In this document: piece after piece, positions 12,247-63,809 of the stretch
Layout of the letters: the number at the start of each line of letters is the position of its first letter
Numbering within the stretch: position 1 is the stretch's first letter
Source: Naegleria gruberi
Taxonomy: Eukaryota
Length of the DNA: 64,000 bases
NCBI GenBank assembly: GCA_000004985.1
Contig: GG738893.1
Direction: 5' to 3' (one strand)
Notes under the pieces: model-generated
What the model was told of the DNA's origin: nothing
Seen by the model: only the letters and a program-made list of their open reading frames with translations
The model's database searches: none
Translations under genes and position numbers: made by a program

Positions 12247-12365
12247 GGCTACGGCCATATCACGATGAATGCACCTCATCCCGTCCGATTTGAGAAGTTA
12301 AGCATCGTCGAGCCACATCAGTACTGAGGTTGGAGACAACTTGGGAACCTGTGGCGCTGTAGTCT
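12247..12365 (+). rRNA. 5S ribosomal RNA, solitary copy followed by a TTTT Pol III terminator
   Basis: GGCTACGGCCATATCACGATGAATGCACCTCATCCCGTCCGATTTGAGAAGTTAAGCATCGTCGAGCCACATCAGTACTGAGGTTGGAGACAACTTGGGAACCTGTGGCGCTGTAGTC TTTT. The 5' GGCUACGGC pairs with 3' GCUGUAGUC (helix I). The conserved AAGUUAAGC loop C region and the GUACU.GG...GGGAA segment are present. Confidence 0.85.
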
Positions 12366-15972: not shown

Positions 15973-17367
15973 ATGACCAAGAAGAAAACAGGAATCATGA
16001 CCAACAACGCACCACCATCATCATCACAAATCAAACAACAAGTGCAAGACACAAAAAACCAAACAAGCCTCCTCAAAAAGCAACTCGACTCTATCGTACA
16101 ACAATATGAACAACAATTGGCAAATTTGGAAAAGTTAGAAACTGCCTTGAATGAGAAGGATGAACAAGTCAAAAGTAGAGAAATTCAAGTCGCTCAAAGG
16201 GAACAATCTGTAAAAGATANNNNNNNNNNNNNNNNNNNNNNNNNNNNNNNNNNNNNNNNNNNNNNNNNNNNNNNNNNNNNNNNNNNNNNNNNNNNNNNNN
16301 NNNNNNNNNNNNNNNNNNNNNNNNNNNNNNNNNNNNNNNNNNNNNNNNNNNNNNNNNNNNNNNNNNNNNNNNNNNNNNNNNNNNNNNNNNNNNNNNNNNN
16401 NNNNNNNNNNNNNNNNNNNNNNNNNNNNNNNNNNNNNNNNNNNNNNNNNNNNNNNNNNNNNNNNNNNNNNNNNNNNNNNNNNNNNNNNNNNNNNNNNNNN
16501 NNNNNNNNNNNNNNNNNNNNNNNNNNNNNNNNNNNNNNNNNNNNNNNNNNNNNNNNNNNNNNNNNNNNNNNNNNNNNNNNNNNNNNNNNNNNNNNNNNNN
16601 NNNNNNNNNNNNNNNNNNNNNNNNNNNNNNNNNNNNNNNNNNNNNNNNNNNNNNNNNNNNNNNNNNNNNNNNNNNNNNNNNNNNNNNNNNNNNNNNNNNN
16701 NNNNNNNNNNNNNNNNNNNNNNNNNNNNNNNNNNNNNNNNNNNNNNNNNNNNNNNNNNNNNNNNNNNNNNNNNNNNNNNNNNNNNNNNNNNNNNNNNNNN
16801 NNNNNNNNNNNNNNNNNNNNNNNNNNNNNNNNNNNNNNNNNNNNNNNNNNNNNNNNNNNNNNNNNNNNNNNNNNNNNNNNNNNNNNNNNNNNNNNNNNNN
16901 NNNNNNNNNNNNNNNNNNNNNNNNNNNNNNNNNNNNNNNNNNNNNNNNNNNNNNNNNNNNNNNNNNNNNNNNNNNNNNNNNNNNNNNNNNNNNNNNNNNN
17001 NNNNNNNNNNNNNNNNNNNNNNNNNNNNNNNNNNNNNNNNNNNNNNNNNNNNNNNNNNNNNNNNNNNNNNNNNNNNNNNNNNNNNNNNNNNNNNNNNNNN
17101 NNNNNNNNNNNNNNNNNNNNNNNNNNNNNNNNNNNNNNNNNNNNNACTAAGAAAACAAACACTTCTGATTTGAATTCAAATGTTTTAGGAACAAAATCAA
17201 ATCATTTCAAAGTTAAACTCATATCTAATTGTAATAGTTTAATGATTGGATTTGCACCTAAAAGTATTAATGTGAACGAAACAAATAATAATACAAAATG
17301 TGGATATTATTTATATACTACTACTGGAACCATTTATTCTCAGAATGGAGAATCAAACAAAAGCTAA
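15973..17367 (+). CDS. coiled-coil protein with a C-terminal SPRY-like segment, copy 1 of a local family; interrupted by a 926-bp N-gap
   Basis: The N-terminus is a Q-rich coiled coil (MTKKKTGIMTNNAPPSSSQIKQQVQDTKNQTSLLKKQLDSIVQQYEQQLANLEKLETALNEKDEQVKSREIQ). The C-terminus after the gap reads HFKVKLISNCNSLMIGFAPKSINVNETNNNTKCGYYLYTTTGTIYSQNGE, which is SPRY-like. The middle is unknown (N-run). Confidence 0.5.
   Translation: MTKKKTGIMTNNAPPSSSQIKQQVQDTKNQTSLLKKQLDSIVQQYEQQLANLEKLETALNEKDEQVKSREIQVAQREQSVKDXXXXXXXXXXXXXXXXXXXXXXXXXXXXXXXXXXXXXXXXXXXXXXXXXXXXXXXXXXXXXXXXXXXXXXXXXXXXXXXXXXXXXXXXXXXXXXXXXXXXXXXXXXXXXXXXXXXXXXXXXXXXXXXXXXXXXXXXXXXXXXXXXXXXXXXXXXXXXXXXXXXXXXXXXXXXXXXXXXXXXXXXXXXXXXXXXXXXXXXXXXXXXXXXXXXXXXXXXXXXXXXXXXXXXXXXXXXXXXXXXXXXXXXXXXXXXXXXXXXXXXXXXXXXXXXXXXXXXXXXXXXXXXXXXXXXXXXXXXXXXXXXXXXXXTKKTNTSDLNSNVLGTKSNHFKVKLISNCNSLMIGFAPKSINVNETNNNTKCGYYLYTTTGTIYSQNGESNKS
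16220..17145. other. assembly gap (926 N)
   Basis: Run of n characters. Confidence 1.
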
Positions 17368-17479: not shown

Positions 17480-18973
17480 TTACAGGTCATAAATATCTAC
17501 ATGATCTGCTAAATTCATTTCTCGAATGTATTTTTCACCCTCATCGCTTATATTGTTGTCAACTGCGTTAAGTCTTGTTAATTGCTTCATTCCACTTAGG
17601 GCTTTAACGCCTTCGTCACCAATTTCATTGTAACCTATATCTAGAAAAGTTAATTGTTCCATTTCACTTATAAATTTGGCTCCCTCATCTCCAACAGCAT
17701 TGTGATAGATAGAAAGCTGTGCTAGGTGCTTCATTTCACTGATTTGGTTTGCACTTTTCTCTCCAATATTATTATGAGCAATTATTAGATACGTTAAATT
17801 ATCCATTTTACAGATATATTGTATACCTATTGGTGTAATATCAATACTAGAAACATTAAGTTCAGTTAATTGGTTCATTTCACTTATAGATTGGACTCCG
17901 TTATCCCTAATTCGATTATCAGAAATGTCAAGCTTAATTAAATTTTTCATTTGGCTAATGTGAATAGCCCCGTACGGTGTAATCAAATTTTCAGCTATAG
18001 AAAGATGAGTTAATTGATTAAATGATGAAATGTATTTTGTTCCATCCAATCCAATACAACAACTGTTCACATTAAGATCTGTTAATTGTTTCATTTCTCC
18101 AAAACACTTAACACCGTCATTAATAGAATTAAACCCAATATCGAGTTTCCGTATATTCATCATTTCACTAACATACTTGGCACCGTTCTCGCCTATATTA
18201 TTACTAGCAATATCAAGATTAGTTAATTGTTTCATTCCACTAATAAATTTGGCTCCTTCGTCACAAATATTGTTGCCAACAATTTTAAGACCAGTCAACT
18301 GTTTCATTTCACTAATAAATTTTGCTCCATCCATAGTAATTTCATTGGCACGGATATTAAGAAAAGTCAACTGTTCAAGGCCACTAATATACTTGGCTCC
18401 TTCTGGGCCAATATTATTATTAGCAATATGAAGTTGTTTCAATTGCTTCATTTCACCAATATACTTGGCTCCTTCTACACCAATATAATTACCCGTAATA
18501 AGAAGATAAGTTAGTGATTTCAATGATGGTAAATGTTTAGCAATATCAAATCCAAAATAACAGAAAGTCATATAAAGATCAGTCAATTGTTCCAATGAAC
18601 ATATATACTTGAATCCACTTGGATCAATCTTAGAATTAAATTCTATATTGAGTTTTTTCAATTCTTTCATCGAATCCAATATCTCACAATTAAATCCACC
18701 TTCATTCTCTATCACTCTTAGATTTGCAACATTTTCCAAAAACGGCAATTGACCAACCATTTCCAAATCACTACTACGTGTTATCGAGAGGTGTTTACAT
18801 GAATTTTTAATGACATGAAACCACTGTTTGGAAACCAATGCACACCTCTGTACAATAAATTTAAAATCATCGTGAAAAGATAAAATTTCAAAGAGTGAAT
18901 CGTCAGAGAATAGATTATTTTCTTGTATTTTCGAAAATGAAGAAGTGATGGAATGTTTTGGTTGTGTGATCAT
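17480..18973 (-). CDS. F-box-like / leucine-rich-repeat protein (RNI-type 28-residue LRRs, ~14 repeats)
   Basis: 497-aa ORF. The N-terminus has an F-box-like motif (LFEILSFHDDFKFIVQRCALVSKQWFHVI). Perfect RNI-type LRRs follow, e.g. NNIGPEGAKYISGLEQLTFLNIRANEITMDGAKFISEMKQLTGLKIVGNNICDEGAKFISGMKQLTNLDIASNNIGENGAKYVSEM. Confidence 0.8.
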   Translation of the reverse strand: MITQPKHSITSSFSKIQENNLFSDDSLFEILSFHDDFKFIVQRCALVSKQWFHVIKNSCKHLSITRSSDLEMVGQLPFLENVANLRVIENEGGFNCEILDSMKELKKLNIEFNSKIDPSGFKYICSLEQLTDLYMTFCYFGFDIAKHLPSLKSLTYLLITGNYIGVEGAKYIGEMKQLKQLHIANNNIGPEGAKYISGLEQLTFLNIRANEITMDGAKFISEMKQLTGLKIVGNNICDEGAKFISGMKQLTNLDIASNNIGENGAKYVSEMMNIRKLDIGFNSINDGVKCFGEMKQLTDLNVNSCCIGLDGTKYISSFNQLTHLSIAENLITPYGAIHISQMKNLIKLDISDNRIRDNGVQSISEMNQLTELNVSSIDITPIGIQYICKMDNLTYLIIAHNNIGEKSANQISEMKHLAQLSIYHNAVGDEGAKFISEMEQLTFLDIGYNEIGDEGVKALSGMKQLTRLNAVDNNISDEGEKYIREMNLADHVDIYDL

Positions 18974-44497: not shown

Positions 44498-46344
44498 ATG
44501 GTAAAAAATTCATCACCTCCAACCAATGGAGAATATCAACCAACACGGATTGAATTATTTAAGCAAAATCATGATATTGCTTTTAATTTCTTGAAAAAGG
44601 GTATTGAACTTGATGAGAGCAAACAATTGGAAAAAGCCAGAGATTACTATCGTGAGGGTATGTAAAAAATTGTTGTAAAATTATTGTAACTGATGATTTT
44701 TTAGGCATTCAATCGATTCTACAAGCAGAAAGAGTTCCTCTCTCACAACAGGAAAGGTATCAAGCAAAAGCCATGTTGGATAAACTTTCAAAACACAAAA
44801 CCATGTTTTATGAGAGAGTGAAAGAAATTGATCAAATTCTTTTCAGTCAACAGCAAGCAAAACAAACTCAATTGGATAATCTCAGCAATAACAATGCAAG
44901 TGGAGGATTTTTCTCTGGGTTTATGAAAATGTTTTCACCACTCTCAACACCTCCTAACAGTTCATCCAACAATAATAGTAACACTCAACAAGCTATCTCA
45001 CAAGAAACAAGAAAATTGTGTAGTGTAAATAATAATAGACACGAGCCAATCTATAATCAATATACGACCAACAGCCAAGTGATTAGGAGCTTCCCAGCAG
45101 TTTCTTCAATTGGTCAATCTTCAACCAACATGTACAATAGTGTCAATATTTGTGATGGTATTTCTTCATCTGAGAAGAGAAGTCCAACACCACCAAGAAA
45201 TAGAAGTAATTCAAATGATAAGATTTTATTTGGCCACTATGATGCTCTTGGATCACTTCCACAAAACAACATGGGTCACTATCAACAACCACCTCAACAA
45301 TCATCTCAACAACAACAGCAACCTTTAGTTCCAAAACAAAATTCTGTAACTGCACTCAGAAATACTACCTCAGCAACATCATCAACAACAACAGCTAACA
45401 ATAAGAAACCTTCCCTTGATCAAATTCCAGAACTCAAAGGTGTTGATAGGAAACTTTTGGATCACATTTTGAATGAAGTGATTGAAACAAAAACAACTAA
45501 TTGGGATGACATTGCTGGACTTAAGGATGCCAAACAAACACTTCTTGAAACAGTAATCTTACCAAGTATAAGACCTGATCTTTTTAATGGACTGAGAGCT
45601 CCATGTAGAGGTATTTTACTTTTTGGACCACCTGGTACAGGTAAAACAATGATTGCAAGAGCATGTGCCTCTCAATGTAATGCTACTTTCTTTTCTATTA
45701 GTGCTGGGTCCTTAGTTTCGAAATATCATGGCGAAGGTGAAAAATTAGTGAGATGCTTATTTGCTGCTGCCAGATATTTGCAGCCGTCTGTGATATTTAT
45801 TGATGAAATTGATTCGATACTATCTGCACGTAGCTCTGAAGAACATGAGGCTAGTAGAAGAATGAAAACAGAGTTTATGATTCAAATGGATGGTGTTAGT
45901 AATATGAATGGGAAAGAAGATAGAGTTCTTGTAATGGGAGCTACAAACATTCCAACCGAATTGGATGAAGCTATTCTCAGAAGATTCACCAAGAGAATAT
46001 ATATACCTCTTCCTGATCATGCAGCAAGAGCATCACTCATTAAGCAACTTTCACATGGTCAAAATATGAGTTTGAGTGAAACCGATATCAACAAGATTTG
46101 TGTAGCCACTGAAGGATTTTCTGGAAGTGATCTGACAGCCCTGTGTAAAGAAACGTCAATGGTTCCTCTGAGAGAAATAAGTATGGATCAACTCATTTCT
46201 ATAGATGCACGAAAGATTAGACCAATCGTGCTCAAGGATTTCCAATCTTCTCTCGTGCATGTTAGACCTTCCACATCACAAGATACTATTAAGAAGTTAG
46301 AAAAGTGGAATGAAAGCTATGGAACTTTTGCAAAGGGTATTTAA
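44498..46344 (+). CDS. meiotic-clade AAA ATPase, spastin-like (MIT-like N-terminus plus AAA+ plus Vps4-C-like end). Exons 44498..44657 and 44705..46344
   Basis: [103 protein letters not shown]...RVLVMGATNIPTELDEAILRRFTKRIYIPLPD is almost collinear with human spastin ([102 protein letters not shown]...). The 47-bp intron 44658..44704 (GTATGT...TTTTAG) lies inside the MIT-like region. Confidence 0.85.
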
Positions 46345-47833: not shown

Positions 47834-50800
47834 ATGAATTTACTTCATGCTTTCACCATCTTGTTGTTGGTTTTCACTCTCATACTCCAAATAACCAATG
47901 GACCTGTCGAATGCCAAACCATCAACACAATTGCTGGCTCGCTTCCATATGGCTATAATGGTGATAATCAAGTGGCAATAAAAGCAGAACTCTACCAACC
48001 AAAACAATTGGCTTATTACAATAACGAGGTTTATATTGCTGACAGTGCCAATCATATGATTAGAAAAATACTTTCGAATGGGACAATAGTTTCGATTGCT
48101 GGTTGGATGGGTTCACCTGGCTATAATGGTGATAATCAATTGGCTAACATGGCTAAACTCAATGCTCCAAATGGTTTGGCAATTTCTTCTGCCACAGGTC
48201 ACATCTATATCGCGGGTTAGTTGTTAATTTTTATTGGAATTTAACTTTTGCAAGATACTCAAAATTATCGAGTTAGAAAGATTGTAAATGGTGTCATTTC
48301 AACAATTTCTGGAACTGGAGTACAAGGCAGTTGTTCAGATGGAGTTCTAGCTATCAACTGTGCATTATACTCTCCATCCAATATTGCTATTCGAACTATT
48401 GAAGGAGTTGGTGATGAAATTTACATTGCCGATTCGAGTATCGTTAGGAAGATTGGAACAGATGGAAAAATCTATAGATATGCAGGTGGAGGCAATGAAA
48501 ATATTGAGTATGGCTCTGCAGTTTCAGCTCAACTTGCCTCTCCTCTCAGTGTTGGAATTTCACCCACTACAGGAGAGCTCTTCATTGGAATAGGAATCAA
48601 TTATATTATTAGAAAGGTCTTTCTGAATGGTACAATAGTTTCTGTAGCGGAGAAGGAAAGTTCTATTCAGGGTTTTGTTTCGGGTGTTACTGGAATATCA
48701 TTTTCAAATACTTCTCTCTATTACACAGAGTATCAGGCACGTGTTAAACAACTATTCCTCTCAAATGGAACATTTTCTGTTATTGGTGGAAACCTTAATG
48801 TTATGGTTACCAATTATCAAGATAACATTTTGGCAACAGATGCCACTCTATTAGGTCTGAAAGGAATTGCATTCTCTCCAGAAAAGAATGAAGTGTATAT
48901 CTCTGAATATGATTCATTCGCTACTAATGGAAGAGTGAGAAAGATTGGATCTGATGGATATATTGTAACAGTGGCAGGTAATTTGACAAGTTTGAATAGT
49001 GGATATAATGGTGATGATATTATGGCCACGGATGCAAAATTGTATAGACCTGAGGCTGTAATAGTTTCTAATAGTGGGGATGTCATAATTTCAGATACTG
49101 GTAATAGTAGAATTAGAAAGATTCTGTCTAGTGGTAAAATTGTGACCATTGTTGGACAAGGAAACTTTGGTAATACTGCAAATTATAATGGAGATGGTAT
49201 TCCTGCTATTGCTGCAAATATCAAATTTCCAAGTGCTATTTTACTTTCATCTAGCAATGAATTGTACATTGCCGATTTTGGTAATTATCGAGTTCGAAAG
49301 GTACTTGCTAACGGAACGATAACAACCATCGCAGGAACAGGTTCTAACATAGAATCTACTGCCTTAGATTTGGCCATTAATGTTGGAATTGGATCACCAA
49401 TAGGTTTAGCTATTTTTGGTGATGAGGTTTATTTCACCACAAATTCCAATAGAGTTAGAAAGATTTTGAGTAATGGAACTTTAATAGTCTATGCAGGTAC
49501 TGGAACAGTTGGCTATGATTCAAATAATGTATTGGCCGTTAATGCTAAACTAAATGCTCCAACATTCTTGGCTGTTTATCCTAATGGAGATTTGCTGATT
49601 TCAGATAGTTTCAATTATATGATTAGAAAAGTTCTGACAAATGGTACCATTATTCGAGTTGCAGGAACTGGAACATTTGGATACAATGGAGACAACATCT
49701 TGGCTATAAATGCCCAATTGGCTAATCCACAAGGAATTCATATACTTTCGAACGGTGATATTCTATTCTCAGATCAGTTCAATTATAGGGTGAGAAAAAT
49801 TCTGACCAATGGAACAATTTTAACAGTTGCTGGATCTGGAACTTTTGGATACAATGGAGAAAATTTACCAGCTTTAAGTACACAATTATATGCAGCTCAG
49901 GGCTTGGCAGTTTCACCTATCGATGGTTCGATTATTTTAGCTGACACGTCAAATCACAGAATTAGGAAAATATTAGATTTCTGTGATTCGAATAGAACTT
50001 GTAATAATAATGGTTTCTGTAACACAACCTCTAATCAATGCGTTTGTTATTCGGGATGGATTGGGTCAACATGTTCCTCCTTTTCATGTGATGCCTTAAA
50101 CAATTGTAATGGAAATGGAAAGTGTATTGGAAATAACACTTGCCAATGTGATTTGGGATGGAGAGGAAATTCTCAATGCAGTCAATATTCATGTGAAATT
50201 TACAATAATTGTTATGGAAATGGAATGTGTGTGAAAAACAATACATGTGAGTGTTATTCTGGATGGAGAGGATCATCTGCTAATTGTTCACAGTTTTCAT
50301 GTGATGGAGTGGCAAACTGCTCAGAACATGGTATTTGTATGGGAAATAATTCATGCTCATGTCACACTGGATGGAAAAATAACCAATGCTCAGAAATTTC
50401 ATGTGACATTCTCAATAATTGTTATGGAAATGGCATTTGTAAAACGAATAATACATGTGAATGCAATTCAGGATGGAAAGGTGCCTCAAATTGCTCTCTT
50501 TTCACATGTGAAGGTGTTGGAAATTGCAGTTCTCATGGAAAATGTATTGGAAATAACACTTGCCAATGTGATTTGGGATGGAAAGGAAATTCTCAATGCA
50601 GTCAATTTTCTTGTGAGATTTACAATAATTGCAATGGAAACGGATATTGTAAAAGTAGCAATAGTTGTGAATGTAATTCTGGATGGAAAGGTTCATTAGA
50701 TTGTTCCCAATTCTCATGCGAAGGCGTCAACAATTGTTCATCTCATGGTATTTGTTATGGAGCCAATACTTGTGTATGTGAAAAGGGATGGAAAGGAAAT

Positions 50801-52102
50801 TCTCAATGTTCTCGTCCATCATGTGAAGAATTGCAGAATTGTAATGGTAATGGAAACTGCACACTCAATGGCAACTGTTCCTGTAATAGTGGCTGGGAGG
50901 GAGCTGATTGTTCCACCATTTCAAAAGTGATAGCAGCCAATGAATCCAATAATAATACTGTGACCATTGTAGTGACAGTTGTGGCTGTAGTCGTTGTTTT
51001 ATTGATTATTGCTGCCATTGTGATAATAGTCATAGCAGTTATATTGTCAAGAAAGTATGTGAAGAAACCTAGCAATGAGTCGAAGCATGAAACAATTTTG
51101 AAGAATGATTTTGAGCTCATTGATGAAAATACGAATAGCAATACCATGACGTCGATGAAACCTGTTGAAACCATCCAATCGACGTCAATGAACGAAACCT
51201 CAATAGTTTCAGATTACCCATCTGATTCATTTCTTAGCTCAACAAAAGTTTCCTCCATTGTTTCGTCATCAGCAAAACCACTCACTCCAACTAACTCTTC
51301 AAGTCAATTCTCAATGCTTAAGGATCGTTATCAGATACAGGAAGTAATTGGGCAAGGATCTTTCGGCAAATGTTTTCTTTGTTTAGATTTGAAAAAACAA
51401 AATCAACCAGTTGCTATCAAAACCATAAGTATAGGAGAGAACAAACACTCAAAGATCATTGATGAATGCTCCAAGACTATTTCTTACAAACATCCAAGAT
51501 TGGTACAAGTTTATGAATTCTTCGAATCTGAACTTCTCAATTCAATTTGCATTGTAATGAAATTTTACAATGGAGATTTGGAAACACTATTGAAAAAGCA
51601 ACAAGGATTCCTACCTGAAAGTATGATCATCAAAATGATGAAACAATTAGGTGATGGTTTGGATTATCTTCACAATGAAAAGATGATTATTCACAGAGAT
51701 ATCAAACCAAAGAATATTTTCATTGAATCATTCGATATTGAAAGAGAGGAAATCAATGTAGTTATTGGAGATTATGGAGAAGCAAAGGATCTGGGAGAAA
51801 CCAGCAATACAGTTGCAGGAACAATTATCTACATGGCTCCAGAGGTCTTTTCCAGAAAATATGATTGTAGCGCTGATATATTTTCTCTGGGAGTGACACT
51901 TGTACAAAGTATGTCAGCAAGTGGATTCGATTTCTCAGTCACGGACAAACTCATGTACGAAGCAGAGGAGAGTGTACTGCAAAGAGTGAGTGAACATTTA
52001 CTTTCCAGAAACTATTCGATTCATTTGTGTGAGTTTGTAATTTCCATGTTATCAAGAGATCCTAAAAAGAGACCTACCTGTTTAGATATTAAGAATTATT
52101 GA
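47834..52102 (+). CDS. receptor-type protein kinase with a signal peptide, ~11 NHL repeats, ~12 tenascin-type EGF repeats, a TM helix, and a kinase domain. Exons 47834..48215 and 48255..52102
   Basis: Signal peptide MNLLHAFTILLLVFTLILQITNG. NHL blades end in ...N(H/Y)(M/R)(I/V)RK(I/V) (SANHMIRKI, TQNYRVRKI, GNSRIRKI, FNYRVRKI, SNHRIRKI ...). A 39-bp GTTAGT...CAAG intron (48216..48254) lies between blades 2 and 3. EGF repeats follow (CxCxSGWxGxxCSxFSC, 49980..50900). The TM helix is VTIVVTVVAVVVVLLIIAAIVIIVIAVIL. Kinase motifs: GQGSFGK, AIK, HRDIKPKNIF, DYG, YMAPE. Confidence 0.8.
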
Positions 52103-53179: not shown

Positions 53180-53746
53180 ATGTCATTAAATCAAGTTGCT
53201 ATTTCTACCATCACGGACCAAATACGAAATATTTCTTCAACACTTTATCAAGATCTTTGTAATTTTCTTCCTACACTAAAGGAAACTAAACAATTAGATT
53301 CTAAAAATCTAACACTCTTGAATATTCTTCACATTTTTCCATATACAATTATTTCCTTGATTTTTCCTTTCATCATTAGATACTTCTTGGTTGGAAATTC
53401 AGGTATTGATAGCCTTGATTCTTTTTCTAATGGATTTATTCGAATGTCGGGAGCTTTTAGTTTCGGATTATTATTAATGTTATTTAATCATAGAAAATAT
53501 ATTGATTTTGCAGAAAATAATCAACAAGCATCGTCATCACCAACTTTCTCCGGAGAAAGGAAAAGCATCTTCCTCATGATGACTTTCTATTTTGCCTATT
53601 TATTAATTTCTTCAGTGATTAATTTACTTTTTAATTTTGGATTTTTCAAGTTGCTCTTTTCAATTCTCAAGATTTGTTGGTATTTTGTAATGATGTTCCA
53701 CAATGCTACTCAATCCTCAATACTCACCTCAAAGAAGGAAAATTAA
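53180..53746 (+). CDS. small polytopic membrane protein, hypothetical
   Basis: 188-aa ORF with 3-4 hydrophobic helices (IFPYTIISLIFPFIIRYFLVG, GAFSFGLLLMLF, IFLMMTFYFAYLLISSVINLLFNFGFFKLLFSI). No family recognised. Confidence 0.35.
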   Translation: MSLNQVAISTITDQIRNISSTLYQDLCNFLPTLKETKQLDSKNLTLLNILHIFPYTIISLIFPFIIRYFLVGNSGIDSLDSFSNGFIRMSGAFSFGLLLMLFNHRKYIDFAENNQQASSSPTFSGERKSIFLMMTFYFAYLLISSVINLLFNFGFFKLLFSILKICWYFVMMFHNATQSSILTSKKEN

Positions 53747-54868: not shown

Positions 54869-55621
54869 TTATTTTTCTGATAATTGTAATTGATTATTAC
54901 TCAATTCATCCTTCTTTGCAAAATACCAATCAGGAAGATTTGAAATGCTCTCTTCAGCAAATCCATTTCCCTCCAAAATATCAATAACTTTTTGCTGAAC
55001 TTGTTTTGCATCGAGATTATTGACATTAATACATGCCAATTTCTTTCCACTCAATACTACATTATTGACCTGGTCGAATCGGTACTTTAAATAATAGGCC
55101 CACATTAAGGAATCAAACAGATTGGAAAATTCCTTATATTCCCTCTTCTTTGTTGACCTTTCCCATCTCCTCTTTTTTGCTACCTCCTTATCTGTGGTAT
55201 CCAAATAGATTACAATATCAAAGTGCTTATCAATTATTGGTTTTTCACAACATGACAAGTACCCTTCAACAATCAAATATTGCTTATTTTTACAAATTTC
55301 CAATTCCTTCACAATTTCATTCTCAAATTTTACAAAATCAACAGATTCTACACATTCCATATTTCCCTTCAATTCCTGTTTCAATTCTTCAAATGGTTTG
55401 CTTCTACATTGATCTTGACAGATAGAATTTGTGTCATACTTTTTACGCAAATATCTACTCAAGGTTGTCTTTCTAAAATCATCATCATTCCGAATATTTT
55501 CAAGAGATATTCCTCATCAAAAACATTCGATTAGTCAATTAACTTACCCTGAAGAAGTGGATCCACAGATGCAAATCACAACTGGTCGACTCGTACTACT
55601 ACTATTGTTGAATCCTTCCAT
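54869..55621 (-). CDS. nicotinamide-riboside kinase / uridine-kinase-like P-loop kinase. Exons 55548..55621 and 54869..55472
   Basis: A 75-bp GTAAGT..TTTTAG intron (55473..55547) joins MEGFNNSSSTSRPVVICICGSTSSG|KTTLSRYLRKKY, giving the P-loop GSTSSGKTTL. Downstream, YLIVEGYLSCCEKPIIDKHFDIVIYLDTTDKEVAKKRRWER...MWAYYLKYR parallels NRK1 ([39 protein letters not shown]...VWPMYLKYR). Confidence 0.7.
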
Positions 55622-55874
55622 TTTTTTTACGTATTTTCTAAATTTAAAGTTCAAATTCAAACATGAAAAACGTTAGATGATGTTTCAAGTTCAGTCAATT
55701 ACAATAATCGACAAATTGAATGTTGTTAGGATTCGAATATGTTTTCATCAATGGTATTGTAAAATGAATAATATTTAATATTATTTAAGATTTAAGATTA
55801 CGCTTCTCATTAAGATTGCAATTTTCAACTATGCTATTAATAACCTCAAACACAGAAGAAAAATTGAAGAGAGA

Positions 55875-56519
55875 TTGAGACAGAAGAGAATGGGAAAATA
55901 TTATGCTGTTCATAAGGGTAGAACACCTGGAATTTACTTTTCCTGGGAAGATTGCAAGAAACAAGTGGAGGGTTATCCAGGCAATGTCTACAAATGCTTC
56001 CCAACCGTTGCTGTGGCTGAGCTATTTGCCAAGAAGGGTCCATTGAAGTATAAACTAGCAGTAAGGACACTTCTTCATCGAGATGCATGGGTCATTTCGA
56101 GTGATGATGAAGATGAGTATATTAACAGTTGCAATGCTGTGAATAAGAACAATAAGAAGGATGATAAGGAAAGTAAAGAAACTACACTGGCTTCATCCAA
56201 TCCCGATAATATTAATAACAGTAACAATAGTGATCAAAAGATGAATAATACTCCAAGCAATAATAATGTTAACTCCAATAACAATAATAATAATAGTGAG
56301 AAAGATGATAATAGACCACCTATTTGCCAATTTTACATGTCACAAAGAGGATGTCGGTTTGGAGATAATTGCAGATTCTATCATCCTCCAAATGATGATT
56401 CTCCTGAACAATGTTATGATGATTCCGATTCCGATGATAGTGATGATGTACCATTGTGTGTCTATTGGCAAAGAGGATATTGTGGAAGGGGCAATTGTTG
56501 TCCATTCTATCATGATTAG
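55875..56519 (+). CDS. protein with an RNase-H1-type hybrid-binding domain (Cauli_VI/HBD), an N-rich linker, and two CCCH zinc fingers
   Basis: The HBD reads MGKYYAVHKGRTPGIYFSWEDCKKQVEGYPGNVYKCFPTVAVAELF (compare RNase H1 N-terminus [44 protein letters not shown]). The C3H1 fingers are CQFYMSQRGCRFGDNCRFYH and CVYWQRGYCGRGNCCPFYH. No RNase H catalytic domain is present. Confidence 0.7.
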   Translation: MRQKRMGKYYAVHKGRTPGIYFSWEDCKKQVEGYPGNVYKCFPTVAVAELFAKKGPLKYKLAVRTLLHRDAWVISSDDEDEYINSCNAVNKNNKKDDKESKETTLASSNPDNINNSNNSDQKMNNTPSNNNVNSNNNNNNSEKDDNRPPICQFYMSQRGCRFGDNCRFYHPPNDDSPEQCYDDSDSDDSDDVPLCVYWQRGYCGRGNCCPFYHD

Positions 56520-57657
56520 ACATCTTAGTATGTGCACCTTAATATGCAAGCTCAGTACCTTAGCGTTGCAGGATCCATAATTCAGAAATTCCATAGGCCT
56601 CTCTTTACACAAGTGCCATCCTACTCATTGAATATGTTTATAAACTAAAAATCAACATTTGAAATTCCTACATTACAACTAAATCTCTTCTTTATTTAGG
56701 TTTCAAAAGTATTGGAATTCTTGAGTTTCCCATTAAGAAATACCATTCAGATTTGAAAGATTACGGTAAGGTGTTAGCTGCGATTCTTCCATTCATTGAA
56801 TAATTTGAAATGATAACTGTTGAATATTTTGTAAAATATCATATCAGGAAATGCTAATTCAAGAGTGTGATACAGAATGTTATCAATTGAAATCAAACCT
56901 AATGTTTACATCAATTTGTATTGAGTTTTTAAGTGTATATGTTGTAAGTATTTGTAATACATTGTAAAAATGATATTCGTATAAAAGTTATGATGTTTCA
57001 AACAAGGAAATTTCATTTTAGTATTGTCCAAAGATTCTTAATGTCCAATAATAGTGGTCTTTAAAAGATTTTTCCTCTATGAAAGAACATTATGGACACA
57101 TATCCGTGTCTTGTCATCCTAATTGCCCAACTAATTTTTGTGTGATCTGAATCCTAACCATTCAAGTACACGCTCAATCGTTTCAATGAACACTAACCTA
57201 GTTACTCCTCAATGAATTTCATTACTTCTCCATTCAACTTTCCCCCATTCGTTCACCAAATTTACTAACTTGTCATTGAGGCATCTTATCTCGATAGGTT
57301 TTTTGTATGTTTTTAGATAGATTCGCTGCAAACTCTCATGATTGCTTCAAAGCCGACTCAAACCGAATGTTTTTACATTCTCTCTTAATAGAAGAATTTC
57401 ATGAAATGATGCAATCAAATAAAAAAACCTTGCCGCCACAATACACCATTAAAAATCAACTTGAAAAAAAACAACACAAACCCATCAACAACTATCACCA
57501 CCATAAATTGATCCATTTAAACCTCAATTGGACATCCATCACACTGCTATTGAGAGAGACGCACAACACTGAACAACAACAATTGAATAAGAATTGACGT
57601 AAATCTCTCTTCAGCATTATCAACATTGGAAAAAAACGAAACTCTTAATCATTATTA

Positions 57658-59466
57658 ATGGGACAACGGTTATCAATTAATACGACAGGTAGCTTTTCGA
57701 TATCGAGTATTGGAAATTTAATACCAGACTCGGAGGTTAGTCAGAGTGATAATCGTGAGGAGGATCAACGACCACCACGAATCATCTCTGAGGAAGAACG
57801 ACAAAACACAGTAAGGCTCAAATTACTGAAAGCTAATATTGTAGCAGCTGCTGCAACGACTCGGTCTGGAACAGCATGTTCAGCCTCTCCTCAGAGTTTT
57901 AGAAGGAGAGCTGCTAGTGATTATGGAATTCATGGAAAACAATCATCACATTCAACGGATGACATGACAATATCAGGATATAAGGATGAACAAACTGCTC
58001 TCTTGTTGGAAAAGATGAAACACATTCCTCCAATTCAGGAATTTGTGGAGCAAATGAGTAATGAAGAAAAACTATTGAAATCATATTTGGACTATAGTTG
58101 GGTTTCAACAGTCGCCATTATTGAGAGGTCTGTATCAGAGAGTATGAGATTTCTTGCTAAGGGTATTGGTGACTTTTTTAATGTTGCCATCAATGAGATG
58201 CATTTAAAAACTCGAGATTCGAATAGTGATGAAGACGGAGATGTAATGAACTCTATGGAATTGAATCCATACGTTGAAGTTAAGCTTCTCATAGTTCCTT
58301 ATATACATCTGAATGAAGGATCCAGTTTCAGCACAGTCAGTTTTCCAGTTCTGGATCATTTTCCTGTAGACACAGAGGAAGATGCCCAGACTGGCAAGAA
58401 ACTTGACCCTCAAAGATTTACATTCTCAAGACCTTCTCGTTTCACTCTCGCTCTTGTAGTAGGTCCTTGGTTGCTCTTCTTTGATCCTTTAACGAATTTG
58501 ATCATTCCAAAGAAGCTGTACGGTATGGCAAAGATAATGGCATCAGGTCTCCCAGAACTTTTCATCACAAAGCAACGAAACAAACTTACAGAGAAACTTG
58601 CCTCATGCATTGTTTCTTGGAACACATCTAAATTGTACAGGACCGATGAAGATATTTTCTCTCGGCACTCACACCCTAACGTTTACGGAAATGGTATTGA
58701 TTTTATTGAAGATTTTATTCGAAATCAATTGAATATTGATTACACAACATTTCCAACTGTAAAATATTTTACCACATTCCTTGATAATATTAAACATCAA
58801 GGATGGTCACCCTTAGTAGTTGATTTGAATAGTGAACTGATGGAGAAGTATGGCAGTTTCATTGAAGCTAAGGATGAAGTAACAGAAAGAGGTAAACGAA
58901 CACTATTTGAATTCACTTCACATGAACAACTCGATAATATGGTGAAAGAAATGATGCTCAGTGACTTGATGAATCACAATCCAATGACAGCCACTGACAT
59001 TTTTAAGGAAACTAAAGAGGTTTCACACTTTTTTGTTGACGTTTTAAAGTTAATGGATAGAGCTTGGTGGATGAGTCATCTATTTGATATCAATGAAGAA
59101 AACCCAGAGCTGTCAGAACCATGTAAAGGACATCACCATTCAGCAATAGCCACTAAGATTACAGATAGCTCCCCTAAGCATGTGAAACAAACCAGAGACA
59201 CTATTGGTCTTCTTGGATGTCCATTTGCTCATCCAATTCCTGACTATGAGAAACTTTTAGAGTGTTACCCGAGACGAAAGAAGAAACGCATGACTTGCTC
59301 CTCTCCAACAAAATCCCCTTCAAGATCTCCTCGCTCAGTATCACCACGTTCTCCTAGATCCCCTCAAACACCTCAATCTCCATATCCTTCCTCCTATGCA
59401 TCACCCTCATCACTACAAGTGCCCAAAAACGATAAGAGACGACATAATTCTGCCACACTAAGGTAG
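57658..59466 (+). CDS. hypothetical protein with an N-myristoylation-type start (MGQRLS) and an SP-rich C-terminus
   Basis: 602-aa ORF. MGxxxS at the N-terminus. The C-terminus reads SSPTKSPSRSPRSVSPRSPRSPQTPQSPYPSSYASPSS (proline-directed phospho-site-like). The middle region has no recognised domain. Confidence 0.4.
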   Translation: MGQRLSINTTGSFSISSIGNLIPDSEVSQSDNREEDQRPPRIISEEERQNTVRLKLLKANIVAAAATTRSGTACSASPQSFRRRAASDYGIHGKQSSHSTDDMTISGYKDEQTALLLEKMKHIPPIQEFVEQMSNEEKLLKSYLDYSWVSTVAIIERSVSESMRFLAKGIGDFFNVAINEMHLKTRDSNSDEDGDVMNSMELNPYVEVKLLIVPYIHLNEGSSFSTVSFPVLDHFPVDTEEDAQTGKKLDPQRFTFSRPSRFTLALVVGPWLLFFDPLTNLIIPKKLYGMAKIMASGLPELFITKQRNKLTEKLASCIVSWNTSKLYRTDEDIFSRHSHPNVYGNGIDFIEDFIRNQLNIDYTTFPTVKYFTTFLDNIKHQGWSPLVVDLNSELMEKYGSFIEAKDEVTERGKRTLFEFTSHEQLDNMVKEMMLSDLMNHNPMTATDIFKETKEVSHFFVDVLKLMDRAWWMSHLFDINEENPELSEPCKGHHHSAIATKITDSSPKHVKQTRDTIGLLGCPFAHPIPDYEKLLECYPRRKKKRMTCSSPTKSPSRSPRSVSPRSPRSPQTPQSPYPSSYASPSSLQVPKNDKRRHNSATLR

Positions 59467-63720: not shown

Positions 63721-63809
63721 GGGCGGTTAGCTCAGCGGTAGAGCACCGGATTGCAAAGTTAATTGCAGCAGACATCCGATGGTCACGTGTTCGATCCACG
63801 TACCACCCT
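63721..63809 (+). tRNA. tRNA-Cys(GCA): tRNA-Cys (anticodon GCA) with a ~17-nt intron 3' of the anticodon
   Basis: GGGCGGT-TA-GCTC-AGCGGTA-GAGC-A-CCGGA-TTGCAAA-[gttaattgcagcagaca]-TCCGA-TGGTC-ACGTG-TTCGATC-CACGT-ACCACCC-T. D and T arms are canonical and U33 is present. The intron contains TGC complementary to anticodon GCA. One C4:A69 mismatch in the acceptor stem lowers confidence. Discriminator is U. Confidence 0.6.

Follow-up and report, generated by a model that had tools for sequence, protein, structure and literature searches.

A Naegleria gruberi gene joining an RNase H1-type hybrid-binding domain to two CCCH zinc fingers, without an RNase H catalytic domain

The stretch of DNA analyzed here, a 64,000-nucleotide window on contig GG738893.1 of the Naegleria gruberi assembly GCA_000004985.1, contains on its plus strand, at 55890–56519, a complete intronless coding sequence of 209 codons followed by a TAG stop. 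The encoded protein begins with a hybrid-binding domain (HBD) of the RNase H1 N-terminal/Cauli_VI type, continues through a short helical extension and a long Asn/Ser-rich linker, and ends in a pair of CCCH zinc fingers with an acidic stretch between them. It therefore belongs to what is called below the HBD-2xCCCH family, comprised of proteins with one HBD and two CCCH fingers but no catalytic domain. The locus is a real, intact, single-exon N. gruberi gene, and its product is a new combination of two well known and promiscuous modules.

An original prediction, made from the sequence alone, had placed the open reading frame (ORF) at 55875–56519. The frame and its end were borne out, whereas the start was moved to 55890. 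Position 55875 is a TTG codon, chosen because the ORF call used bacterial-style start codons; the first in-frame ATG is found at 55890, with an upstream in-frame stop at 55776–55778 and no ATG between the two. As the N termini of related proteins (MSKKYYAV and MKYYAV) coincide with this ATG, the product is taken to be 209 residues in length, encoded by 55890–56519. A stop-free run of 214 codons has a chance probability of ∼7e-8 at the local base composition, and shuffling the surrounding 6 kb 200 times gave a longest such run of 151 codons. The GC content of the gene (0.367 overall and 0.295 at third codon positions) is in line with that of neighboring genes, and the flanking intergenic regions have values of 0.25 and 0.316. 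An intron within the Asn-rich linker was considered and rejected: the frame is open, the alignment with relatives runs across the sole GTATAT site, and the linkers of the relatives are themselves in-frame.

The HBD (residues 3–46; 55896–56027) was identified consistently by Pfam, a PDB sequence search, AlphaFold2, and Foldseek. The match to PF01693 has an E-value of 2.9e-19 and a score of 69.5 bits against a cut-off of 21, and covers profile positions 1–44 of 44. The search with this profile, proposed as a check on the predicted assignment of the N-terminal ∼45 residues, thus places the match well above threshold. The HBD retrieved the yeast RNase H1 HBD (PDB code 1qhk, E-value 6e-10) and the human HBD (3bsu, 2e-6). 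The AlphaFold2 model has block-mean predicted local distance difference test (pLDDT) values of 92–98 across residues 1–50 and a predicted β-β-β-α-β-α fold as in RNase H1. Foldseek superposes the modeled HBD on chain A of 3bsu, a crystal structure in which the human HBD is in complex with a 12-mer RNA/DNA hybrid; the root mean squared deviation is 0.5 Å over 47 columns and the target-normalized TM score is 0.95. The structural alignments give 36% identity with the human domain and 51% with that of yeast. As in eukaryotic RNases H1 (human RNASEH1 and yeast Rnh1), the HBD is full-length, N-terminal, and conserved at the Tyr/Trp/Tyr/Lys positions: Y5, W19, Y34, and K35 align opposite human Y29, W43, F58, and K59, respectively. 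The three human aromatic residues reportedly contact the DNA strand, a finding attributed to Nowotny and colleagues in 2008. Binding of RNA:DNA by the human HBD is compromised by the W43A and K59A/K60A mutations (PMC10639055).

The HBD is followed by a helical extension (56040–56126) with predicted helices at residues 51–64 and 71–79, recognized from the AlphaFold2 secondary structure and the alignment. Its block-mean pLDDT is 86 for residues 51–60 and 64–68 for residues 61–80, and it is common only to the two closest relatives, P0004 and P0017, where GPLKYKLAVRTL..WVIS is aligned to GPHKFKNALRKL..WVSS. The predicted N-rich linker between the HBD and the fingers is found at residues 89–137 (56154–56300), where Asn accounts for 18 and Ser for 8 of the 49 residues and pLDDT stays below 50, as expected for a disordered segment; relatives carry low-complexity, unalignable linkers at the equivalent place.

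Two stretches of the protein match PF00642 (zf-CCCH; E-value 1.5e-10, 41.1 bits against a threshold of 20.5), in agreement with the predicted pair of CCCH fingers. Finger 1 (residues 146–165, CQFYMSQRGCRFGDNCRFYH; 56325–56384), which also matches PF18044, has the expected C-x8-C-x5-C-x3-H spacing. Finger 2 (residues 190–208, CVYWQRGYCGRGNCCPFYH; 56457–56513), the second PF00642 stretch, departs from the prediction in having C-x7 in place of C-x8, followed by C-x5-C-x3-H, as confirmed for both fingers by regular expression. All eight zinc ligands, four in each finger, are present, and the aromatic positions of both fingers are those of typical RNA-binding CCCH domains (C-x-F/Y..., C-RFY-H, and C-PFY-H). 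The region around finger 1 (residues 141–170) is modeled with block-mean pLDDT values of 83–88, and its C155 and C161 are invariant in alignment A1. In finger 2, C190, W193, G196, C198, G201, C204, and H208 are invariant in a five-sequence family alignment, and the core sequence, GRGNCC, is unusual. Between the fingers lies an Asp/Ser-rich stretch (residues 166–189, including DDSDSDDSDD; 56385–56456), in which 10 of the 24 residues are Asp or Glu and none is Lys or Arg (pI 4.05). A similar DSDxD stretch in the relatives sits after finger 2 instead of between the fingers.

No RNase H match was found in the 209-residue protein by Pfam at E-values up to 10. Searches of the entire 64 kb gave the same result: tblastn with the Escherichia coli RNase HI sequence and with P0001, an HBD-RNase H protein, found no RNase H, and a home-made RNase H profile (61 catalytic domains taken from the protein matches), run against the six-frame translation at maximum sensitivity with filters off, returned nothing (best E-value 0.18). 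The TAG stop is found one residue past the last zinc ligand, and no coding-looking frame was seen in the 1.1 kb before the next gene at 57658 when the three plus-strand frames of 56301–57700 were read. The predicted absence of an RNase H domain therefore holds for the protein itself and for a possible downstream exon. Because the catalytic domain, the defining feature of RNase H1, was tested for and is absent, the protein is not an RNase H1 and cannot cleave RNA. Its likely mode of action is that of the RNase H1 targeting portion alone. It further differs from RNase H1 in having neither a connection domain nor a mitochondrial presequence, with the two CCCH fingers found instead.

Relatives were sought by an exhaustive HMMER search of 1.84 billion representative proteins, from which the best 150 representatives were examined; a word-indexed protein search gave one match only, and the exhaustive search was needed to reveal the family. 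An HBD together with CCCH fingers was found in four of these 150, P0004 (320 residues), P0017 (316 residues), P0063 (176 residues), and P0123 (152 residues), and a profile search added a fifth, P0158 (175 residues). All five, which are metagenome predictions from ENA or JGI, pass Pfam for both domains and none contains an RNase H domain. The search for orthologs thus yielded at least five environmental proteins with the HBD plus two-finger, nuclease-free architecture. P0004 and P0017 are the closest to the N. gruberi protein, with tblastn E-values against the window of 9.7e-35 and 4.8e-30 and identities of 65 and 53%, respectively, over the first ∼60 residues including the post-HBD helix; both also have Asn/Ser-rich linkers and are encoded on contigs of similar GC content. 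No synteny was found between the window and the contigs of the relatives, the HBD-CCCH gene itself being the only match. In P0123 and P0158 the order is permuted to finger-HBD-finger. The gene call for P0158 (792–1319 on its contig) appears to begin within finger 1, and a second ORF that overlaps it from upstream (548–844) suggests an intron or frameshift at that locus.

P0063 is encoded on a 41-kb contig together with an ammonium transporter that shares 66% identity with its Acrasis kona counterpart, the next best named match being 37%. The contig is therefore assigned to an Acrasis-like heterolobosean and, with the Naegleria copy, the family spans at least two heterolobosean lineages. Among 98 further HBD loci (18 of them viral) from metagenome and viral contigs, 83 encode an HBD with RNase H, 15 an HBD alone, and none an HBD with CCCH fingers. 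The architecture is thus rare and apparently lineage-restricted, and the family is probably confined to the relatives of Naegleria. HBD proteins in which no catalytic domain can be detected are, in contrast, common, as tandem arrays of two to eight HBDs without a detectable nuclease account for 46 of the best 150 representatives. These tandem-HBD proteins (P0002, P0012, P0016, P0024, P0037, and others) look like an under-studied class of possible multivalent hybrid or double-stranded RNA (dsRNA) binders, although some may be gene fragments.

Over the HBD, comparison of the N. gruberi gene with those of P0004, P0017, and P0063 gave pN values of 0.21–0.28 against pS values of 0.75–0.87, with synonymous sites saturated. 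The HBD is under purifying selection, in a comparison that cannot isolate the N. gruberi branch. Identity to the outgroup P0063 over the same domain is 62% for N. gruberi, 59% for P0004, and 67% for P0017; as the N. gruberi HBD is as close to the outgroup as those of the relatives are, there is no sign of decay.

Four of the five relatives (P0004, P0017, P0063, and P0158) share a C-terminal motif, LLSxGVKP[W/Y]DDD..L..L, which follows an acidic Asp/Ser-rich (DSD) stretch; the loci concerned are L001 6001–6531, L002 34–984, L003 619–1581, and L103 792–1319. P0123 ends before the motif position. The motif produced no Pfam or PDB match, the WIYLD (E-value 0.16) and Cux-2 (0.6) hits being noise, and it is probably a partner-binding peptide. 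Low-stringency tblastn with four relatives did not find it in the N. gruberi protein or downstream of it in the three plus-strand frames.

No paper on the combination of an HBD with CCCH fingers was found in the literature searched, and all proteins found with it are metagenomic predictions, in keeping with the earlier remark that characterized proteins offered no recognized example of this architecture. Several known systems share one of its parts. The fingers resemble those of tandem CCCH proteins (TIS11d/TTP, POS-1, CPSF30, MBNL1, and makorin-type), with C-x7/8-C-x5-C-x3-H spacing and aromatic residues, although the matches to the nearest solved or named examples (CPSF30, POS-1, MBNL1, TIS11d, and makorin-type) are weak and generic, with PDB E-values of 0.001 or worse. 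The TTP/TIS11 tandem zinc finger has two C-x8-C-x5-C-x3-H motifs, an 18-residue linker, and a (R/K)YKTEL lead-in. In contrast, finger 2 of the Naegleria protein is x7, the spacer from H165 to C190 is 24 residues long and acidic, and the lead-ins are NRPPI and DDVPL; unlike makorins, the protein has no RING domain.

On the HBD side, the caulimovirus P6/TAV protein (ORF VI) likewise employs PF01693 in the absence of an RNase H catalytic domain, and this is the only respect in which the two proteins are alike; a segment of 48 TAV residues can be aligned to the human HBD (PMC7102451). P6 is, however, a viral protein of ∼520 residues with the HBD-like segment in its middle (residues 138–184) and no CCCH fingers, whereas the Naegleria protein is cellular, 209 residues in length, and carries its HBD at the extreme N terminus. 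The tandem-HBD proteins (P0002, P0012, P0024, and P0016) also make non-catalytic use of the domain but gain avidity by repeating it, where the Naegleria protein pairs one HBD with a single-strand-type RNA-binding module. The engineered R-loop sensors GFP-HBD and RHINO employ HBDs without cleavage (PMC10639055), and the Naegleria protein is a putative natural counterpart; the sensors themselves are synthetic fusions of human HBDs to fluorescent proteins.

Reading the protein as a hybrid or R-loop reader coupled to RNA binding, as originally suggested, is reasonable but tentative. The explanation preferred here, with moderate confidence, is that it acts as a non-catalytic adaptor, its HBD placed on an RNA:DNA hybrid or dsRNA and its fingers on nearby single-stranded RNA (ssRNA). 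The HBD would dock on an A-form-like duplex, either an RNA:DNA hybrid or, less well, dsRNA, and the flexible Asn-rich tether would lead to the two CCCH fingers, with the acidic stretch between them, gripping ssRNA. Such two-part recognition, at the point where hybrid (or dsRNA) meets ssRNA, would be the most economical mechanism, with the free RNA end leaving an R-loop, or a structured RNA with a single-stranded flank, as candidate targets; the geometry of a tethered HBD and fingers would suit a hybrid/ssRNA junction such as an R-loop RNA tail. There is a precedent in engineered sensors, in which the isolated HBD binds R-loops without a nuclease (PMC10639055), and a second in CaMV P6/TAV (PMC7102451). 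Having no nuclease, the protein would occupy, mark, stabilize, or shield such structures; competition with RNase H1 and the bridging of other factors are further possibilities. In the relatives, bridging would probably be achieved via the conserved acidic C-terminal motif; the N. gruberi protein does not have this motif and may therefore be a minimal, binder-only version.

A more ambitious extension of this model would give heteroloboseans a lineage-specific, nuclease-free hybrid reader, with the HBD on the hybrid, the fingers on the exiting ssRNA, and the acidic GVKP[W/Y]DDD tail recruiting an effector in most members, the tail-less N. gruberi form shielding or stabilizing hybrids against RNase H. 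In this full form the proposal is doubtful. Naegleria has highly transcribed extrachromosomal rDNA circles, which might, speculatively, be the site of action.

Several features weigh against the adaptor model, or against a hybrid-specific version of it. With a pI of 4.4 the finger region has a net acidic character, which is uncommon for a surface that binds RNA and might be autoinhibitory, and CCCH fingers can mediate protein contacts as well as RNA binding. The position opposite human K60 is occupied by C36 in the N. gruberi protein (Lys, Ser, or Cys in the relatives), and consequently affinity or specificity may differ from those of the human HBD. Without the motif kept in four of the five relatives, the N. 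gruberi protein may not act as the rest of the family does. The gene also appears to be absent from the deposited protein set. Finally, HBDs reportedly bind dsRNA too, in work attributed to Cerritelli and colleagues in 1998, so that an R-loop reader is only one option. It is a serious though somewhat unlikely alternative that the protein is a dsRNA-binding protein and not a hybrid or R-loop reader, functioning in cytoplasmic RNA metabolism, silencing, or antiviral sensing, with the fingers strengthening its hold on mRNA or viral RNA; roles of this type have been proposed for the HBD-like domain of caulimovirus P6/TAV. This differs from the adaptor model in ligand preference only. It is consistent with the variable residue opposite K60, with the absence, by eye, of a clear nuclear localization signal or organelle presequence (the HBD starts at residue 3), and with the presence of the cytoplasmic mRNA regulators TIS11d and POS-1, at weak scores, among the nearest solved fingers. 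The conservation of the putative DNA-contacting aromatics as Y5, W19, and Y34, and the fit of the model to a hybrid-bound HBD at 0.5 Å, point instead toward hybrids, although neither excludes dsRNA binding. According to the 1994 and 1998 references listed in PMC1950709, the HBD was first described as a duplex-RNA-binding motif common to caulimovirus ORF VI, which again suits a dsRNA ligand.

The remaining alternatives concern the nature of the gene. A family remnant that is truncated, without function, or in decay, and that went unannotated because it is not expressed, would account for the missing LLSxGVKP[W/Y]DDD tail, the unusual GRGNCC core of finger 2, and the absence from the public protein collection, the last being weak evidence because other evident ORFs in the window also seem to be unannotated. 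Such a remnant is improbable, however, given an intact 209-codon frame that chance would hardly produce, eight intact zinc ligands, HBD conservation against the outgroup equal to that of the relatives with dN far below dS, and a coding-type base composition that stands out from the flanks. Recent acquisition from a virus or mobile element could be envisaged, as HBDs occur in caulimoviruses and HBD loci are found on IMG/VR contigs, including giant-virus bins. This is very unlikely when none of the 98 further HBD loci, viral ones included, pairs the domain with CCCH fingers, the base composition is host-like, ordinary cellular genes lie on both flanks, and a relative sits beside cellular genes on the Acrasis-like contig, fitting vertical inheritance within Heterolobosea. 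With its host-like composition and divergent arrangement with a cellular kinase gene, the gene looks native. Least credible of all is the idea that the gene is a standard RNase H1, with a catalytic exon that escaped notice downstream, beyond an intron, or within an assembly gap. RNases H1 do give the nearest sequence matches to the HBD outside the family, but the stop directly after finger 2, the null six-frame searches, and the proximity of the next gene leave little room for such an exon; the sole assembly gap in the window (16221–17146) is ∼39 kb away, and the five nuclease-free relatives are encoded by uninterrupted ORFs on independent contigs.

If the adaptor model is correct, the protein would join a small group, as cellular proteins that recognize RNA:DNA hybrids without destroying them are few. 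R-loop mapping tools are built from the HBD itself, and a natural coupling of this domain to ssRNA-binding fingers would illustrate how hybrids can be read by cells instead of being removed, and would provide a small, alternative framework on which to build sensors of hybrids or junctions. The analysis also defines a small protein family with a conserved C-terminal motif that may mark Heterolobosea, and indicates that the N. gruberi reference annotation apparently misses short, intronless, conserved genes. As the modules are well known and promiscuous, the finding is an incremental addition unless an unusual activity emerges by experiment.

With regard to annotation, the HBD-CCCH protein, with either start, was not found in a collection of 15 billion proteins that includes the proteins of its neighbors. 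The word-indexed search found no N. gruberi copy, and HMMER found no self-like match among the 1.84 billion representatives, the best match (148 bits) being a four-HBD protein. Exact look-up identified the upstream plus-strand neighbor as EFC40298 (53967–54821), which has an NBR1-type Ig domain, and the downstream neighbor as EFC40299 (57658–59466), both proteins of N. gruberi strain NEG-M. Since these plus-strand genes on either side have consecutive accession numbers and the protein is missing from the collection, the gene is inferred to be absent from the deposited set, and it is probably unannotated. Both neighbors and spastin (SPAST_NAEGR), which lies further upstream, are found on one 337-kb scaffold.

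Immediately upstream, a divergent intergenic region of 268 bp (55622–55889; GC content 0.25) separates the ATG at 55890 from the minus-strand ATG at 55621–55619 and is presumed to be a bidirectional promoter. The gene on its other side (54869–55621, minus strand) encodes a PRK/uridine-kinase-type P-loop protein (Pfam E-value 2.8e-6) in two exons, separated by a 75-nucleotide intron (GTAAGT...TAG) at ∼55473–55547; its exon-2 ORF as such is absent from the protein collection.

Other ORFs were noted upstream on the plus strand. The spastin ORF (44773–46344) encodes 523 residues identical to the UniRef entry SPAST_NAEGR, and the NCBI model EFC40297 has 231 residues, a discrepancy that is another sign of imperfect gene models in the region. 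Between EFC40297 and EFC40298, which are also consecutive accessions, resides a receptor-kinase-like ORF of 1284 residues (48248–52102) with NHL repeats, teneurin-type EGF repeats, and a C-terminal protein kinase domain, which may also lack a deposited entry. A further ORF of 188 residues at 53180–53746 has no Pfam match, and its exact sequence was found only from an ENA metagenome contig, not among N. gruberi entries of NCBI or UniProt.

Elsewhere in the window, a 5S rRNA gene is found at 12247–12365 on the plus strand (Rfam, 103 bits), and an 89-nucleotide tRNA match at 63721–63809 on the same strand (Rfam, 50 bits) probably contains an intron and was not reported by ARAGORN. The assembly gap is a run of N, and it is responsible for an apparent GC bin of 16.6% and for spurious overlapping ORFs at 15973–17367 and 16194–17162. 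Beyond the gap, a long minus-strand ORF (17480–18973) includes, at 18160–18493, a 72-bp tandem repeat of 4.6 copies with 68% matches.

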